This document shows positions 6,141 through 24,191 of a stretch of 64,000 nt of DNA, piece after piece (position 1 is the stretch's first letter; each line of letters begins with the position of its first letter). Under the pieces are notes generated by a model that was not told the DNA's origin, ran no database searches, and saw only the letters and a program-made list of their open reading frames with translations. Location of the stretch: the NCBI GenBank assembly GCA_977017645.1, contig OZ360234.1:40052001-40116000 (forward strand), given 5' to 3'. The DNA comes from Torpedo marmorata (lineage: Eukaryota). A program made the translations under genes and the position numbers.

Positions 6141-7821
6141 AAAAAAGTACCATGCCTGAGGACTGGGAGAAATTCAGAGTCCAGCAGAGGAGGACAAAGG
6201 GCTTAATTAGGAAAGGGAAAAAGATTATGAGAGAAAGCTGGCAGGGAACATAAAAGCTTTTACAGATATGTGAAGAGAAAAAGATTAGTTAAGGCAAATG
6301 TAGGTCCCTTACAGACAGAAATAGGGAATTGATCATGGGGAACAAGGACATGGCAGACCAATTGAATAACTACTTTGGTTCTGTCTTCACTCAGGAGGAC
6401 ATAAATAATATTCCGGAAATAGTAGGGGACCAAAGGTCTAATGGGATGGAGGAACTGAAGGAAATACATGTTAGTCAGGAAGTTGTGTTAGGTAAATTGA
6501 AGGGATTAAAGTCAGATAAATCCCCAGGGCCAGATAGTCTGCATCCCAGAGTGCTTAAGGAAGTAGCCCCAGAAATAGTGGATGCATTAGTGATAATTTT
6601 TCAAAACTCTTTAGATTCTGGAGTAGTTCCTGAGGATTGGAGGGTAGCTAAAGTAACCCCACTTTTCAAAAAGGGAGGGAGAGAGAAAACGGGGAATTAT
6701 AGTCCAGTTAGCCTGACGTCGGTAGTAGGGAAAATGCTAGAGTCAGTTATTAAAGATGTGATAGCAGCACATTTGGAAAGCGGTGAAATCATCGGACAAA
6801 GTCAGCATGGATTTATGAAAGGAAAATCATATCTGACGAGTCTTATAGAATTTTTCGAGGATGTAACTAGTAGAGTAGATAAGGGAGAACCAGTGGATGT
6901 GGTATATTTGGATTTTCAAAAGGCTTTTGATAAGGTCCCATACAAGAGATTAGTGTGCAAACTTAAAGCACACGGTATTGGGGGTATGGTATTGATGTGG
7001 ATAGAGAATTGGTTGGCAGACAGGAGGCAGAGAGTGGGAATAAACGGGTCCTTTTCAGAATGGCGGGCAGTTACTAGCAGGGTACCGTAAGGCTCGGTGA
7101 TTGGACCCGTTATTTACAATATATATTAATGATTTAGACAAGGGGATTGAATGCAACATCTCCAAGTTTGCGGATGACACGAAGCTGTGCGGCAGTATTA
7201 GCTGTGAGGAGGATACTAAGAGGATGCAGGGGGACTTGGATAGGTTGGGTGAGTGGGCAAATGCATGGCAGATGCAGTATAATGTGGATAAATGTGAGGT
7301 TATCCACTTTGGTGGCAAGAACAGGAAAGCAGATTATCTGAATGGTGGCCAATTAGGTAAAGGAGAGGTGCAACGAGACCTGGGTGTCATTGTACACCAG
7401 TCTTTGAAAGTGGGCATGCAGGTAAAGCAGGCAGTGAAAAAGGCGAATGGTATGTTGGCATTTATAGCAAGGGGATTCGAGTACAGGAGCAGGGAGGTTC
7501 TGCTGCAATTGTACAGTGCCTTGGTGAGACCACACCTGGAGTATTGTGTACAGTTTTGGTCTCCTAATCTGAGGAAAGACATTCTTGCCATAGAGGGTGT
7601 GCAGAGAAGATTCACCAGATTGATTCCTGGGATGGCAAGACTTTCATCTGAAGAAAGACTTGGCCGACTAGGCTTACACTTGCTGGAATTTTGAACATTG
7701 AGGGGGGATCTTATTGAAACATATAAAATTCTTAAGGGATTGGATAGGCTAGATGCAGGAGGATTGTTCCCGATGTTGGGAAAGTCTAGAACCAGGCGTC
7801 ACAGTTTAAGGATACAGGGGG
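6141..7821 (+). mobile_element. CR1 LINE ORF2 (RT) fragment, truncated at both ends, pseudogenised
   Basis: ORFs 6329-7090 and 7101-7694: KSPGPD, QHGF.KGKS.LT.LIEFF, YLDFQKAFDKVP, KFADDTK, RPHLEYC.QFWSP. Stop in the VPQGS motif. A SINE tail remnant (6105-6139, minus) abuts its 5' end. Confidence 0.92.
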
Positions 7822-9253
7822 CAACCACTGAACTCTTATTTTCATCACTTTGGGAAATGTGACTGTGCAGAAAACATAGAAATTTAATTATGATTTTGAT
7901 GAAAATCTCTTTCTGCCTAGTAACTTATTATTAAAACTGACTTGAGAGGTTTGAGTAATTTTGTTACTGGCTGTCCTTTATGTTTCCTTGCTTTCCTTCC
8001 GTCCTTCAGCTTTGTACATTCCATCATCTTTGTTCATATTGATAGCATATCAGCATAACATGCTGCATTACCAGCTCCTGCAGATTGAATCCATCCAAAA
8101 ATTACCATGTCATAGCATTTTCCAATCTAGTGCAGATATACAAGCCTCAGCATTATCAAACAATTTATGTGATGAACACCTCAACTAAAAAAAAGTAATC
8201 TTCCCTTGAATATGAAAGCATGCTAGAGTAGAGTCACATTCTGCTTTTGTTATCGTGCACATGCCATTACATTCCAGATGGGAAGGAAATTAAAATGGTA
8301 ACTTTCAATGAGATTACAAAAGTGGTAACGTAATATATACATGGCAATCTAAAAGCAAAATATGGAATTCTAATTGCTTATACATTCCAAGACAAAAATA
8401 GCTTCTGGACAATGAGAATAAATCATGTGGCTATTTTTATTAACCAAATGCATAGTGTTTATTGCAATAGAAATGATATGATACATTGCAGCTGTTGCTG
8501 TAAGTGTATATACCTTCTGAAATTGGGAAGGTATAGAATTAGCTGTTAGAAGTACTGTCTTGCTTCTGTTTCTGCTATTCTTCTCTCTCATCACTGATAG
8601 ACGCAGAGGAAAACATCTATTGCTCGAAATTTAGCCTAATTAGCCTATTATTTACATCAGGAAAAACAATGCATATGACCGCAATACCTCCTTTGCATTT
8701 ATGGGTCAAATTTTGATTCTATAAATGTTCTATGATTTGTGTTTAGTAATAACTAGTTATTCCATTTATGCATCAGTGATTAGCATCCATGATTACTGGA
8801 GGTATGCCTTATGTTGCTTTTAAGATGTCATGCATCATCTACATCTGTTCTCTCACAAAGATTCTGATTTCTCATGAACGCAGTTTTTTTTTTTTTTTTA
8901 CCTTCAATAAGGTAGAGATGCTGCTGCCCAAGCTCGAAAGCATGAATCCTAAAGAATCAGCATTTGTCGAAAAGAACCAGCGCAACTTCACGCTGAGATG
9001 AAGGACGTTGCAGCAGACCTGGTGGAGGAAGTCTTTGTTTTTGTCAAGGCACTGGACATTCTGTAAGGTTGCATTATTGCAACAAATGGTTGAGGGCAAT
9101 GTGCAGCATCACTGACAAGAAGATTCATGAGATACACTAAATCTGGTTTGTATTACTTTGTGTACCACCCAGCCAAAGAACAGCAAAAATTTTGTTATGC
9201 CTTTAATATGTATTCCCATTATGATTTCATTTACAACCCCCTTGCTGTTGCCC

Positions 9254-9515
9254 TGATAGGCCTATCAATAATACTCGAAAGACGATGAGTAGAATACGAA
9301 CAGTCGGCTTTTATTATCTATAATTGAAGCTACAGTTGACCTGCTGATCTATCCCGGACTGAGGGTGGAGCAGTGGCACAAGAGCCTTTATTCGGGGGAG
9401 GAAGGGGGAGCAGTTACCGGGACAGCCAGGAAAGGGGAGGAGCCACCGGGACAGACAGCAGGACATGCCCATACTAATCCCCAGCCCACAATACACATAA
9501 CAGTGGTTTACCACA
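9254..9515 (-). repeat. 3' LTR of the Gypsy element
   Basis: Direct repeat of 11628-11889, preceded on the minus strand by a polypurine-like tract. Confidence 0.93.
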
Positions 9516-9620
9516 TTCACCCATCCTTTTTAAAAAGAGTCCAACGGGGTGACGTGGCCACTGTGATTATTTACAAAATACAAAACGGAAGATATATATA
9601 CAGATATACACATTCAAAAT

Positions 9621-10626
9621 TTACAGGTCGAGCCGATCAGGCGGTCTGATCCGCCGCTGCGACCTGCGCAGTACCCGCGGTGACAGGGCGGGTTGTGGTG
9701 GTGGTGGAGATGGCAGGATGGTCTGCAGGGTTGCCTCCTGCCTGGCTTCTTGTGGCACATTCGGCCCTGGCAAGGGTGCTGGAGCTGCCGTGCTGGGGGG
9801 GGTGGGGAGGGGCTGCGACAAGTGGTCTTCCATGTCGAGGGCTTCTCCCGGCGCTCATGCGGGCGCCAGGTCGCGAATTGACACGGTGTCTTCCCGCCCA
9901 TCAGGGAAGACCACGTAGGCATATTGCGGGTTAGCGTGTGCTAACTGCACCCTCTGGACCATCGGTTCGTACTTGCTGCTCCGAAGGTGCTTGCGGAGCA
10001 GCACAGGTCCCGGGGACGTCAGCTAGGCAGGTAGGGTGGTTCCGGTGGTCAATTTCCTGGGGAAGGCGAAAATTCGTTCGTGAGGGGTTGAATTTGTGGA
10101 CGTGCACAGCAGGGACCGGATAGAGTGGAGGGCTTCGGGGAGGACCTCTTGCCAGCGGGAGACCAGCAGTCCCTTGGACTTGAGAGCCAAGAGCGCGGCC
10201 TTCCAGACAGTGGCGTTCTCCCTTTCCACTTGTCCGTTTCCCCGTGGGTTGTACCCTGTGGTCCTACTAGTGGCGATGCCCCAGGCCTGCAGGTACTGTC
10301 GCAGCTCCTCGCTCATAAAAGCTGATCCCCGGTCGCTATGTATATAGCTCGGGAAACCAAATAGCGTAAATACCTGGCGAAGAGCTTTAATGGCAGAGGT
10401 AGCCGAAGTATCGGGGCAGGGAATGGCAAAGGGGAACCGCGAGTACTCATCAATGATGTTGAGGAAGTACACATTGCGGTCCATGGAGGGAAGTGGGCCC
10501 CTTGAAGTCGATGCTGAGACGTTCAAAAGGGCGGGTGGCTTTGACCAGCTGAGCCTTGTCGGGGCGGTAGAACTGTGGTTTGCACTCCGCGCAGACCCGA
10601 CAACTGCTGGTCATTGTCCTGACCTC
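9621..10626 (-). pseudogene. Gypsy integrase with frameshift and stops
   Basis: CRVCAECKP, PFERLSIDFKGP, IDEYSRFPFA, HSDRGSAF, YNPRGNGQVERENA; C-terminus LRRSQRRIRPPDRLDL; no chromodomain. Confidence 0.88.
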
Positions 10627-11604
10627 TTACAGGGAGTAGGGCAGATTCCTGGCTTTCACAAAGTGGAACAGCCTGGTAACTCCTGGGTGACAGAGGTCAC
10701 ACTGGATGGAGTACAATCGGTTGATCTGCGCGCTGGCGCACGATCCCCGGGATAGAGCATCAGAGGGCTCATTGAGCTTCCCGGGCCGGTACAGGATATC
10801 ATAATTGTAGGTGGAGAGCTCTATTCTCCACCTCATGATCTTATCGTTTTTGATCTTACCCCGCTGCTGGGTGTTAAACATAAACGCAACAGAGCGTTGA
10901 TCTGTCAGCAGGGTAAAATGCTTACCGGCGAGATAGTGCCTCCAGTGCCTAATAGCCTCCACTATGGCCTGGGCCTCTTTCTCAACCGCGGAGTGCCGAA
11001 TTTCGGGGCCTTGGAGGGTCCATGAGAAGAACGCCACCGGTCTTCCCGCCTGGTTGAGGGTAGCAGCCAGCGTGAAGTCCGATGCGTCACTCTCCACCTG
11101 GAAAGGTGTCGATTCATCCACCGCGTGCATTGTTGCTCGGGCAATGTCCCCTTTTATAAGGTCGAAAGCCTTACGCGCCTCTGATGCGAGGGGAAACGTG
11201 GTGGACTTGACAAGGGGTCGGGCTTTATCGGCATAATTAGGGACCTGGCGCCCGCAGGAGCGCCGGGAGAAGCCCTCGACATGGAAGACCACTTGTCGCA
11301 GCCCCTCCCCGGGCCGCTGATGCCGCGTTGATAGCCGGTGCCTTGCATGGACCGCGTTAACTGGCGTTATATAGATTCTTTTCAGGGCGTCCATAGCCTC
11401 CACGTAGGTTTTACAATCCCGAATCGTTGAAAATACCCGAGGGCATACCCTGGACACGAGGACCGTCTGTTTCTCGTCCTCGCTTTCCGCCTTGATCGTC
11501 CTTAAGAAGGACTCAAAACAACGCAGCCAGTGTTCGAATGAATTACCGGCGTCTGGGGCTAGAGGATCGATGTCCAACCTGTCCGATCTCAGGGCGCTCT
11601 CCAT
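10627..11604 (-). pseudogene. Gag N-terminus fused to RNase H and integrase zinc-finger start
   Basis: Gag: RLDIDP...FEHWLRCF...ARHRLSTRHQRPGE. RNase H: ESDAS, GRPVAFFS, EKEAQAIVEAIRHWRHYL, TDQRS, Y.PGK.N..SDALSR. Premature stop after NLPYSL. Confidence 0.88.
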
Positions 11605-11627
11605 CAGATACTTATAGATAATAAAAT

Positions 11628-11889
11628 TGATAGGCCTATCAATAATACTCGAAAGACGATGAGTAGAATACGAACAGTCGGCTTTTATTATCTATAATTG
11701 AAGCTACAGTTGACCTGCTGATCTATCCCGGACTGAGGGCAGAGCAGTGGCACAAGAGCCTTTATTCGGGGGAGGAAGGGGGAGGGGTTACCAGGACAGC
11801 CAGGAAAGGGGAGGAGCCACCGGGACAGACAGCAGGACATGCCCATACTAATCCCCACCCCACAATACACATAACAGTGGTTTACCACA
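11628..11889 (-). repeat. 5' LTR of the Gypsy element
   Basis: Direct repeat of 9254-9515; lies upstream of the gag ATG at 11604. Confidence 0.93.
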
Positions 11890-12720
11890 TGCCGCCAGTA
11901 ATCAGCCACGATTACCCATATGTTCCACTCCTGCAGCCTGGCTCCAGTCACACCCCCAGTTCCTGATTTATGACCCTATCGATTCCTCCTCATCCCAATG
12001 TAAGGTCAAAATCATAACTCTGGGAGCAGATTGCTCTCCCACTCCCAAATATTATCTACCACCTGCCCTGATCCATTGTAATCATAGCACCCCTGAGCTG
12101 AAGATCCAAATCTGAAATATCTGGCTTCTTTGTTCTCGGTGTGCTTGGACCTGGTCCTCTTCCCAGTCTTACATGCTGTTCTCCCATTCAAAAGCTTGTC
12201 CAGAATAAAGTAAGAGCTTTTCAGTAATGCTCAATTGTTTTGAATTGCTGCATGTTTCAGGTGAAAATACTCTATACTATATTGTTGGGTAGTGAGTTCC
12301 AGGATTTAGAACAATCAACAATAATCAAAGACAGAATCTATCTGTTCAGAATTAAGAAACAATAGAAATATGATTACACCACTGGGACTATACTATTGAC
12401 TGCCAATTAGTGGGAAGGATATTAAACAAAGTTGCATGGAAATTGTAGAGGTGTACAAAAGCCAAAGGAAAATGTGAAGAGGGAACTTCAACTATCCAGA
12501 TATGGAATGGAATGGGTAAATAGGTGGAGAAGTTTCTGCTGTGTGTTCAAGAGAGCTTCTAGGATTAGAATGTTCCTGATCCAAGGAGCAATGATCAGTG
12601 GGGATAATCTTGGAAACATCAATCAAAATATCAGAAGTTTTGAAATAGCGATGGAAAGTGATTGTTGTGAGTGAGGAAACATGTTTGGTGGGTCTCAAAG
12701 GACTCTAGACACACAGTTTT

Positions 12721-20740: not shown

Positions 20741-22142
20741 TAAAATCACTAGTTTACCTTGAATTTTCCTAATCTGTGCAACTCAGCTATTATTATCAAC
20801 TTAATTATCATGGATTAATTTTTTTAAATTCTATTACAAGTACCAGTACTTATTCAAGATTCCCAGTTGCACACAACCACTATTATTCCTTTATGCATTT
20901 TTTAATAGGTCATTCAACCCATATATTTCCAACTTTCTTCCAAATAAAATGAGTAAAGAGACTTCAGAATAATCAAATGTCATCTTTTGGTTAGTTGGAA
21001 AGTGCTTTTAAAAAATATTTTTAACATTAGGATATTTTCAAAGATGACTCCTTTAATATTTAGGGCAACTAGTGTGTACAATAAGTAAAACACGAACATC
21101 TGTGGACACCGTGGTTGAAGTAAAAAACACAAATGCTGGAGAAACTCAGCAGGTCAAACAGTGTCTTTTATGTAGCAAAGGTAGAAATACATAACCAACG
21201 TTTCGGGCTTGAGCCCTTCATCAAAGTATGAGAAAATGCCGGCAGGCGTCCGAACAAAGGAGTGAGGGGGGAAGGGGGATGGCAAAAGCAGGAGATGATA
21301 GGTGGAGAAAGGAGGGAGGGGACAGCAGCAAAGAGGGGGAGGAGGGATGGCAAGGGAGCTGGAGAAAAACAGGAAGGACAGGTGAGGGGGGAGGGGAAGG
21401 GAACGACAAGCAGGTTTAGTGGAAAGCAGAAAAGTCAATGTTAATGCCATCTGGCAGGAGAGTGCCGAGACGGAATATGAGATGTTGTTCCTCCAATTTG
21501 CGGGTAGTCTGGGTGGGATAGTACATGAGGCCATGGACAAACATGTGAGTGTGGGAGTGTGACCCGGAATTGAAATGGATGGCTACTGGGAGGTCGCTGT
21601 TGTTGCGGACGGAGAGGAGTTGCTCAGCAAAGCGGTCTCCCAATCTACGACCAGTCTCTCCAATGTATAGAAAGCCACAAAGGGAGCACCGGATGCAGTA
21701 AATAAGTTCTCTGGATGTACAAGTGAAGTGTAGTTTCACTTGGAAGGCCAGTTTGGGGCCCTTGACCGTGGTGAGGGGGAAGGTGTGGGCGCAGGTGTTG
21801 CACCTCCTGCGGGTACAGGGGAAGGTTCCGGGGGTGTGATGGGTGGGGAGGGATGAGTGCACGAGTGAATTGCGGAGGGAGCGGTCCCTACGGAAGGCCG
21901 AGAGGGGAGGAGAAGGAAAAATGTGTCTGGTGGTGGGATCCTGTAGTAAGTGCCGGAAATTCCGGCGGATAATGTGTTGGATGCGGAGGCTGGTGGGGTG
22001 GTAGGCACTTCGCTTCTTCCTGGACCAAAGACCCGACCAGTCACCCTCTACCACCACCCTCCTCCGCCTGGCAGAACTTGTCTTCACTCTCAATAACTTC
22101 TCCTTCAACTCATCCCACTTCCTCCAAATCAAAGGAGTAGCC

Positions 22143-23303
22143 ATGGGTACCCGCATGGGTCCCAGCTACGCCTGCCTGTTTGTGGGCTTTGTGGAGCAAT
22201 CCATGCTGCAAGCATACACAGGCAAGACCCCTCATCTCTTCCTCCAGTATATCGACGACTACATCGGGGCTGCCTCATGCACCCGCGATGAGCTTGTCAA
22301 CTTCATCCACTTCGCATCCAACTTTCCCCACGATCTCAAACTCACCTGGTCCATCTCCGATAACACTCTCCCCTTCCTGGATCTCTCTGTCTCCATCTCG
22401 GGAGACAAGCTTTCCACCGACATTTACTACAAACCCTCCAACTCCCACAACTATCTGGACTACACATCCTCACACCCTGTCCCCTGCAAGGACTCCATCC
22501 CCTTCTCTCAATTTCTCCGCCTCCGCCGCATCTGTTCCCAAGATGAGGTGTTCCACTCCAGATCTTCTGAAATGTCTGCCTTTTTCCACAAACGTGGCTT
22601 CCCCTCCACCACCATCAACTCAGCCCTCACCCGCATCTCCTCCATTTCCTGCTCATCTGCCCTGGCCCCCTCTGCCCCCAGACGCAACAAACATAGAATC
22701 CCCCTCATCTTCACCTACCACCCCACCAGCCTCCGCATCCAACACATTATCCGCCGGAATTTCCGGCACTTACTACAGGATCCCACCACCAGACACATGT
22801 TTCCTTCTCCTCCCCTCTCGGCCTTCCGTAGGGACTGCTCCCTCCGCGATTCACTCGTGCACTCATCCCTCCCCACCCATCGCACCCCCGGAACCTTCCC
22901 CTGTACCCGCAGGAGGTGCAACACCTGCGCCCACACCTCCCCCCTCACCACGGTCCAGGGCCCCAAACAGGCCTTCCAAGTGAAACTACACTTCACTTTT
23001 ACATCCAGAGAACTTATTTACTGCATCCGGTGCTCCCTTTGTGGCTTTCTATACTTTGGAGAGACCGGTCGTAGATTGGGAGACCGCTTTGCTGAGCACC
23101 TCCTCTCCGTCCGCAACAACAGCGACCTCCCAGTAGCCAACCATTTTAATTCCGGGTCACACTCCCACACTCACATGTCTGTCCATGGCCTCATGTACTA
23201 TCCCACCCAGACTACCCGCAAATTGGAGGAACAACATCTCATATTCCGTCTCGGCACTCTCCAGCCAGATGGCATTAACATTGACTTTTCTGCTTTCCAC
23301 TAA
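22143..23303 (+). CDS. 5'-truncated Penelope-like RT C-terminus, thumb and GIY-YIG endonuclease (uninterrupted 386 aa)
   Basis: MGTRMGPSYACLF, YIDD, LPFLD, C..C...C, LIYCIRC..CG.LY.GETGR...DRF.EH, KLEEQHLIFRLGTLQPDGIN. Confidence 0.88.
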   Translation: MGTRMGPSYACLFVGFVEQSMLQAYTGKTPHLFLQYIDDYIGAASCTRDELVNFIHFASNFPHDLKLTWSISDNTLPFLDLSVSISGDKLSTDIYYKPSNSHNYLDYTSSHPVPCKDSIPFSQFLRLRRICSQDEVFHSRSSEMSAFFHKRGFPSTTINSALTRISSISCSSALAPSAPRRNKHRIPLIFTYHPTSLRIQHIIRRNFRHLLQDPTTRHMFPSPPLSAFRRDCSLRDSLVHSSLPTHRTPGTFPCTRRRCNTCAHTSPLTTVQGPKQAFQVKLHFTFTSRELIYCIRCSLCGFLYFGETGRRLGDRFAEHLLSVRNNSDLPVANHFNSGSHSHTHMSVHGLMYYPTQTTRKLEEQHLIFRLGTLQPDGINIDFSAFH

Positions 23304-23488
23304 ACCTGCTTGTCGTTCCCTTCCCCTCCCCCCTCACCTGTCCTTCCTGTTTTTCTCCAGCTACCAAGCCATCCCTCCTCCCCCTCTTTGCTGCTGTCCC
23401 CTCCCTCCTTTCTCCACCTATCATCTCCTGCCTTTGCCATCCCCCTTCCCCCCTCACTCCTTTGTTCGGACGCCTGCCGGCATTTTCT

Positions 23489-23529
23489 CATACTTTGATG
23501 AAGGGCTCAAGCCCGAAACGTCGGTTATG
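23489..23529 (+). ncRNA. Minimal type I hammerhead-like motif in PLE pseudo-LTR
   Basis: CATACT-TTGATGA-A-GGGC TCAA GCCC-GAAAC-GTC-GGTTATG. Core with C3U, stem II GGGC/GCCC, loopless palindromic ACGT stem III. Confidence 0.6.
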
Positions 23530-24191
23530 TATTTCTACCTTTGCTACATAAAAGACACTGTTTGACCTGCTGAGTTTCTCCAGCATTTGTGTTTTTTAGT
23601 GTGTACAATAGTTCTCATCTTACATCACAGCTGAAGAGACTGAAGTGTATTTGTATCTTTCTGTGAGTTAATCAGGCTCATTGACTGTGATTTTAACTTC
23701 AAATGTAATTGAACCAGCAGTCATATAATTCATGCTATGTTTCCAGTTTGATCACACAGAATGCCACATGCCAATGGCATTAGAAGTCAATTTATACCTG
23801 GGAAAACATGAATCCTTTAACATTTCAAACTTTCAACCAAACTTTCCCAGGAGCTCCCAGACAGGCCAAGATAAAGCAAAACCAATTCTTTTATATTGGC
23901 CAGACTGAGCTCCAAAGTGGGTGGTAACTCTATGGAGAACTGACATCCATCTATCTTTTGATATTCAACACATTGTCAACTTTGTGCACTGCAATGTCAG
24001 AAGAGGAGAGATTCTGGAGATTAGAAGCCAGTGCATCTGAGCCCCTGCCTGCTCCACCACAGGTCTCAGATCTGTGTCTTGCAGAATTACTTTGGGAAAA
24101 CCAAATCTATGCTTTTATTAAAAGTATATAACATATATATGTAATAGACTAGCATAGGTTAACACAAACAGGTCAAAGATGTTGAATTTTT

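Follow-up and report, generated by a model that had tools for sequence, protein, structure and literature searches.

The 64,000-nucleotide (nt) stretch of Torpedo marmorata DNA analysed here, the window (contig OZ360234.1 of assembly GCA_977017645.1, positions 40,052,001 to 40,116,000), carries on its minus strand a deleted copy of a Gypsy retrotransposon (9254-11889) whose primer-binding position is complementary to the element's own long terminal repeat (LTR). The 5′ LTR (11628..11889, minus strand) and the 3′ LTR (9254..9515, minus strand) are each 262 nt long, run from TG to CA and differ from one another at 6 positions. A polypurine tract (9516..9531, minus strand) adjoins the 3′ LTR, and the insertion is bounded by a target-site duplication, TGCCC on the left (9249..9253, plus strand) and TGCCG, with one mismatch, on the right (11890..11894, plus strand). 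Between the LTRs lie a 5′ remnant of Gag (11305..11604, minus strand) and a frameshifted remnant of the reverse transcriptase (RT) tail, RNase H and integrase (IN) without a chromodomain (9637..11244, minus strand). Relative to its own family the copy is missing about 2 kb, namely the rest of Gag, the protease (PR) and most of RT, a loss absent from the first-pass annotation of this DNA. At the junction of this deletion sits a 76-nt inverted copy of 9804-9879, from the integrase tail (11235..11310); found in none of 12 full-length copies, this inverted bridge suggests a double template switch.

The window family is a young Gypsy family. Its full-length copies measure 4.4-4.6 kb, with one of the 11 measured at 3.8 kb, and their LTR ends are backed by 5-bp target duplications, exact in nine of these 11 and with one mismatch in two. 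The Ty3/Gypsy hallmarks are present: TG...CA LTRs, a short target duplication, a polypurine tract and, in a full-length copy, a single gag-pol frame that encodes Gag, PR, RT, RNase H and IN in that order. Tandem CCHC knuckles are seen in the Gag translation. The closest named proteins, from rays and a catshark, match at 75-84% over RT and RNase H (RT-RH), and a structure search of the PDB returned Ty3 as the best match, with none closer. As the first-pass annotation had stated, the element has no chromodomain: Pfam detects none in the window copy or in the frames of three full-length copies, and PF00385 occurs in 0 of the 120 listed homologues.

One nucleotide past the end of the 5′ LTR and 7 nt before the Gag ATG, the primer-binding site (PBS) position (11612..11626, minus strand) holds no TGG-type tRNA site and instead a perfect 15-nt complement of the element's own LTR; both the coordinates and the pairing given in the first-pass annotation were recovered. 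TTTTATTATCTATAA (11626-11612) is the exact reverse complement of LTR positions 193-207, extendable in neither direction, and 2000 dinucleotide-shuffled versions of the LTR gave matches of at most 10 nt. The pairing LTR segment, the predicted self-primer arm, lies at 11683..11697 (minus strand), with a putative cut between 11683 and 11682. It includes an AATAAA hexamer (11684..11689, minus strand), the predicted poly(A) signal, and recurs with its AATAAA in the 3′ LTR (9309..9323, minus strand). The 18-nt palindrome reported across the LTR end is present (11626..11643), but it is specific to this host: LTR-end palindromes occur in only 2 of the 29 families compared below, both from this genome, and we rejected the palindrome as a feature of the clade.

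Among 30 close copies in the same genome, the junction was found in 29, with an identical PBS in all 29 and an identical LTR arm in 25. A second family of this genome, about 72% identical in the LTR and 73% internally, has a different helix of 14 nt, present in all 16 of its loci with a 5′ junction (of 30 loci). Genome-wide, a pattern count gave 1,204 exact LTR-segment/PBS junctions (control, 0). Leaving seven positions of the LTR arm open raised the count to 1,300, doing so for the seven PBS positions raised it to 1,240, and opening both sets gave 2,317. Subtraction leaves 981 junctions with changes in each arm, where independent arms would yield about 3. Most of these belong to a small number of amplified sister subfamilies and do not count as 981 separate events. 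Of the 100 junctions listed, 40 differ in both arms and fall into four types; the displayed part shows the matching PBS change in 38 of the 40 (one of these with an extra mismatch) and is cut short in the other two. LTR-arm-only variants (96) exceed PBS-only variants (36), and none of the former is among the first 100 listed; this excess is unexplained, and we do not use it as evidence. We inspected 6 copies at one position and 7 at another: none of the copies was compensated at the first, and five of the seven at the second join one subfamily's LTR arm to another's PBS, as recombinants or intermediates might. Other Gypsy elements of the genome have TGG-type sites and at most an off-register self-match of 8-9 nt, in a control where the 5′ LTR end was resolved in 7 of 20 regions.

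Relatives elsewhere were collected with an alignment of 47 homologues, which gave 80 metagenome loci (the best 80 of 478) and nine genome-bin loci; loci, and the families they represent, carry L numbers here. Thirty-six of these 89 loci have no Gag start and two no upstream DNA, leaving 51 usable. A perfect helix of 11-19 nt is present in 41 of the 51 and one of 8-10 nt in six; four have none, three of them damaged copies whose families include sister copies with the helix. From these loci and the Torpedo marmorata genome we assembled 29 families, two from this genome and 27 metagenomic with one representative each, and numbered the helix positions solely from the LTR-end CA.

Compensatory covariation between LTR and PBS, the check proposed in the first-pass annotation, is conserved across these diverged families, whose RT-RH is 40-68% identical to the query in the best segments. 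Positions 1-13 are Watson-Crick in 372/377 cells, no G-U pair occurs at positions 1-14, and pairing is at background by position 17. All four pair types are present at positions 7-9 and 11. The 29 families hold 28 distinct PBS 13-mers, each matching its own LTR, and when arms are swapped between families, pairing at positions 6-13 is complete in only 2 of 812 combinations. The register is fixed, the helix beginning 1 nt past the LTR end in all 29 families and extending over 13-19 bp. A normal tRNA PBS in relatives, which the first-pass annotation named as evidence that would speak against a self-priming lineage, was not found: 0/29 families have a TGG-type site by the LTR end. The LTR arm ends in AAA, each of these three bases being kept in 28/29 families, and R-C-C (R, purine) comes next. 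In local folds the mean helix pair probability exceeds 0.5 in 29/29 families, and a short hairpin begins exactly at the predicted cut (mean stem 4.1 versus 2.7 in shuffled sequences), tolerating G-U pairs, unlike the main helix.

Copies less than 1.2% apart show two kinds of change. In L079 both LTRs differ at one position and the PBS carries the compensating change; in L083 both LTRs are altered and the PBS is not. These are the two states expected from templated recopying. Changes confined to the 5′ LTR, as expected after insertion, are seen in L032 and L038. At PBS position 14, near-identical copies differ, with a mismatch in L080, L088, L110, L125 and L136 and a match (19-bp helix) in L082 and L083, differences that bear on primer length.

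The phylogenetic placement rests on trees of RT-RH (58 rows) and IN (48 rows; nine rows had no usable IN), from which short fragments, near-duplicates and two long-branch rows were left out. Chromovirus rows were chosen from protein searches by Pfam chromodomain and host; named Tf1 and sushi-ichi are not in the trees. The clade is one branch, supported at 100/100 in the RT-RH and IN trees, on a stem of 0.9-1.2 changes per column. The rows with a chromodomain, of fungal, fish, amphibian, algal and plant type, group in a branch of their own (100/99) that excludes the clade, with one chromodomain row outside the chromovirus branch in the RT-RH tree. The base of the tree is unresolved; a single row that we label Mag-like by a motif falls outside the clade in the RT-RH tree. 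For IN, an approximately unbiased (AU) test rejected joining the clade with the fungal/vertebrate chromovirus rows (p=0.0286). Named hosts of the clade, known from proteins, include Hypanus, Mobula, Narcine, Scyliorhinus, Trichuris, Trichinella, Actinostola and Periplaneta.

Upstream of the pairing segment, the TATA-like box of the first-pass annotation, AATAAAGG, is present (11759..11766, minus strand), but its conservation ends with this genome's families. About 30 nt past it lies an initiator-like TCAGT (11732..11736, minus strand), whose A at 11734 is a candidate for the upstream start; another initiator-like sequence, TCAATT (11696..11701, minus strand), directly precedes the pairing segment as a candidate downstream start. 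Four families of this genome combine the TATA-like box with an initiator-like motif 30 nt further on, which would place the start about 37 nt upstream of the helix, and the same four carry the second initiator-like motif just before the helix; both motifs resemble the initiator consensus. In the 29-family set, no TATA box at a fixed distance was found outside this genome, and we rejected such a box as a clade-wide feature. A G at position 10 is kept in 26/29 families, inside an initiator-like TAGTT (positions 12-8). Covariation at positions 12-13 shows that the putative pairing RNA is longer than 11 nt. In the host families the best promoter signature thus has its start upstream of the helix, as the first-pass annotation implied, and the primer may differ from the capped stretch of 11 nt that Tf1 uses.

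What, then, is the pairing for? The LTR/PBS complementarity is real, conserved and clade-wide, and it is most likely a self-priming signal. Minus-strand synthesis must start by the LTR end, and the sole conserved partner there is the element's own LTR segment; we therefore infer self-priming. Judged from sequence comparison, this animal, chromodomain-less Gypsy clade likely primes reverse transcription with its own RNA and not with a tRNA, a reading to which we assign a probability of about 0.7. The fixed register, the exclusion of wobble pairs that the adjacent hairpin allows, and the single-step compensation in L079 fit a primer recopied in each cycle.

Several points weigh against this reading. 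Selection to keep the poly(A) signal hidden could also maintain the complementarity. The 11-bp core of the window family's helix is weak (-7.9 kcal/mol), and three metagenomic families (L089, L117 and L127) have no helix in register and were excluded from the 29. The 27 metagenomic representatives were picked by hand, families and subfamilies are related, so that counts are not independent events, and L079 and L083 are single cases. The upstream TATA-plus-initiator start in the host families would give a long primer unlike that of Tf1. The side stems of the three-duplex Tf1 ‘pretzel’ around the PBS were sought in the 29 families and rejected: flanking stems are not above chance (5.1 versus 5.0 and 4.7 versus 4.7 bp against shuffles). 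Lastly, the AU test on RT-RH did not reject joining the clade with the chromovirus rows (p=0.0785). The first-pass proposal of a separate lineage is supported by the placement apart from chromoviruses in both trees; because RT-RH does not reject the joint tree, an independent origin of the trait is only moderately supported.

Self-priming would probably proceed as follows. The 5′ LTR copy of the segment would fold onto the PBS in cis, and an endonucleolytic cut at AAA|RCC, made, by analogy with Tf1, by the element's RNase H, would free a 3′-OH. Minus-strand DNA would then copy U5 and the remainder of the R region before jumping to the 3′ end of the RNA, where R, running 10-30 nt past the cut, would be left for strand transfer. 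There, the unpaired 3′ copy of the segment would supply the poly(A) signal, while at the 5′ end the helix would also hide it. Plus-strand synthesis would recopy the primer into the PBS, keeping the arms exactly complementary. The primer may begin where the helix does or a little earlier; in this host, its 5′ end may instead lie some 37 nt upstream. The fuller proposition, that self-priming arose independently of Tf1/sushi, that one LTR segment acts as 5′ primer and 3′ poly(A) signal with the helix as the switch and no pretzel, and that the host's primer is perhaps cut from inside the transcript, we advance tentatively, at slightly less than even odds.

Which copy of the segment would prime is the first question on which another reading differs. 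The primer could be the 3′ LTR copy, that is, the RNA 3′ end after the same cut, with the genomic RNA circularised on the PBS. The segment is present in both LTRs, and the inheritance seen in L079 and L083 is compatible with either copy. Covariation at positions 12-14 and past TAGTT would also suit the 3′ copy, since a start at position 11 would drop these positions from the 5′ copy only, and the host's upstream promoter signature leaves R sequence 5′ of the cut for strand transfer. The 5′ copy, however, is separated from the PBS by 21-69 nt and pairs with it in all of the local folds, and it is the copy that Tf1 uses (PMC4600332). The hexamer lies in the last nucleotides of the pairing segment, and masking it at the 3′ end would hinder polyadenylation. 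Native RNA 3′ ends fall 10-30 nt past the poly(A) hexamer; a 3′ end in that place would not be a ready primer and would need the same internal cut. On this ground a primer from the RNA 3′ end, as the first-pass annotation envisaged, is not favoured, and we consider it improbable.

Somewhat less probable still is a helix that serves just to mask the 5′ poly(A) signal or to control Gag translation, with another RNA or site doing the priming. AWTAAA (W, A or T) lies within the helix in 19/29 families, and the PBS arm reaches or overlaps the Gag ATG in L081, L082, L137, L142 and L148. A helix for occlusion, however, need neither start exactly 1 nt past the LTR end nor bar G-U pairs, and the observed helix does both. 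It also persists in the 10/29 families without AWTAAA, in several of which the hexamer lies further along in the loop; in L105 the hexamer is lost and the pairing kept. Nor is there another primer site by the LTR end, given the absence of TGG in the 29 families. Reading of the PBS by a host tRNA fragment or small RNA, with the LTR match secondary, has precedent in the half-tRNA primers described for Copia lineages (PMC6317226). We regard it as very unlikely: the PBS differs between families and one genome alone holds several variants, each tracking its own LTR, and between 11500 and 11950 Rfam gives no match at E<=1. Coincidence, or a single inverted duplication confined to the window copy, draws on the AT-richness of the segment and is refuted by the shuffles, the 1,204 exact copies and the covariation across families.

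Further observations concern the surroundings of the element and of its relatives. The window also contains a decayed non-LTR reverse transcriptase remnant at 6293-7694, 1.6 kb from the element and presumably CR1-like, and an inverted repeat of 885 nt at 21121-23598 (98% complementary, arms 708 nt apart) in repeat-derived sequence. Elsewhere in the genome, Gypsy elements in which integrase precedes RT and the PBS is of the TGG type form a very abundant group (L222-L241). The 40 outgroup candidates from this genome (20 regions) are all integrase-before-RT elements, which we assume to be of the Gmr1 type. A chromodomain search of the genome gave 15 matches, none a retrotransposon and only host-gene-like; chromodomain-bearing retrotransposons seem scarce or absent here. 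Three loci of the second family, L052, L054 and L056, lie about 100 kb apart (C11:204290058-204502635) with identical 3′ flanks, indicating segmental or tandem duplication. In other sources, the contigs of several bacterial genome bins that carry these animal-type retrotransposons (L153-L161) are probable host contamination, and scans of viral contigs found no relative of the clade.

Tf1 has been shown to self-prime, and the trait is otherwise ascribed mostly to the chromovirus relatives of Tf1. If our reading is right, a second, very common Gypsy clade self-primes, and tRNA-independent priming either arose more than once or predates the chromoviruses. The clade ranges over cartilaginous fishes, nematodes, a sea anemone, an insect and marine metagenomes, and its elements would be out of reach of silencing by tRNA fragments. 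Annotation that finds the PBS by its tRNA match would miss such elements, and a self-complementary PBS explains why. A substrate of one helix with a sharply predicted cut also offers a way to study RNase H cleavage of RNA-RNA duplexes.

Finally, we would like to set the clade beside known elements. Its single gag-pol frame, short LTRs and tandem CCHC Gag knuckles recall the Mag lineage, of which such knuckles are a trait. Large unplaced marine Gypsy clades exist, namely MolGy and PolGy of molluscs and annelids, and the available text of the papers describing them (PMC6238403, PMC8556966) makes no mention of a PBS or of self-priming; our comparison with these names is by description, with no sequence match-up. 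The literature, as far as the accessible parts of the sources go, ties self-priming to Tf1/sushi, Tcn1 and Copia TAR (PMC6934838, PMC3601003, PMC6317226, PMC4600332, PMC5443660, PMC5341516, PMC2836005, bioRxiv 10.1101/2022.12.06.519325). Our literature search found no description of it in a metazoan non-chromovirus Gypsy clade, and prior naming in Repbase Reports or subscription journals is plausible. ‘Selfy’, which we believe to be a Repbase-style label for self-primed Gypsy elements, had no match in that search, and ‘Smaug’ returned nothing relevant.

Outside Tf1/sushi, self-priming has been predicted for the Copia TAR lineage (Houba, Osr-1) and the Tcn1 chromoviruses of plants from LTR/PBS complementarity of at least 10 bp (PMC6317226). 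The same complementarity predicts it for our clade, and the trait had thus already been proposed beyond Tf1/sushi; TAR elements are Ty1/copia in plants and Tcn1 is a chromovirus, whereas ours is a metazoan non-chromovirus Gypsy clade. In Tf1, Tf2 and Tj1, and in Tf1/sushi generally, the PBS, placed just past the 5′ LTR, can pair with a segment of that same LTR (PMC4600332, PMC5341516 and bioRxiv 10.1101/2022.12.06.519325). The clade resembles them in having a PBS complementary to its own LTR and no tRNA site. Unlike them, it has no chromodomain and lies outside the chromovirus branch in the RT-RH and IN trees; its helix, at 13-19 bp, usually covers the poly(A) hexamer, its priming is a prediction, and a small hairpin at the predicted cut stands in place of the pretzel side duplexes. 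By tree, by chromodomain and by pretzel, the clade is not a member of Tf1/sushi, and what we describe is most likely a known mechanism in a lineage apart from the chromoviruses.
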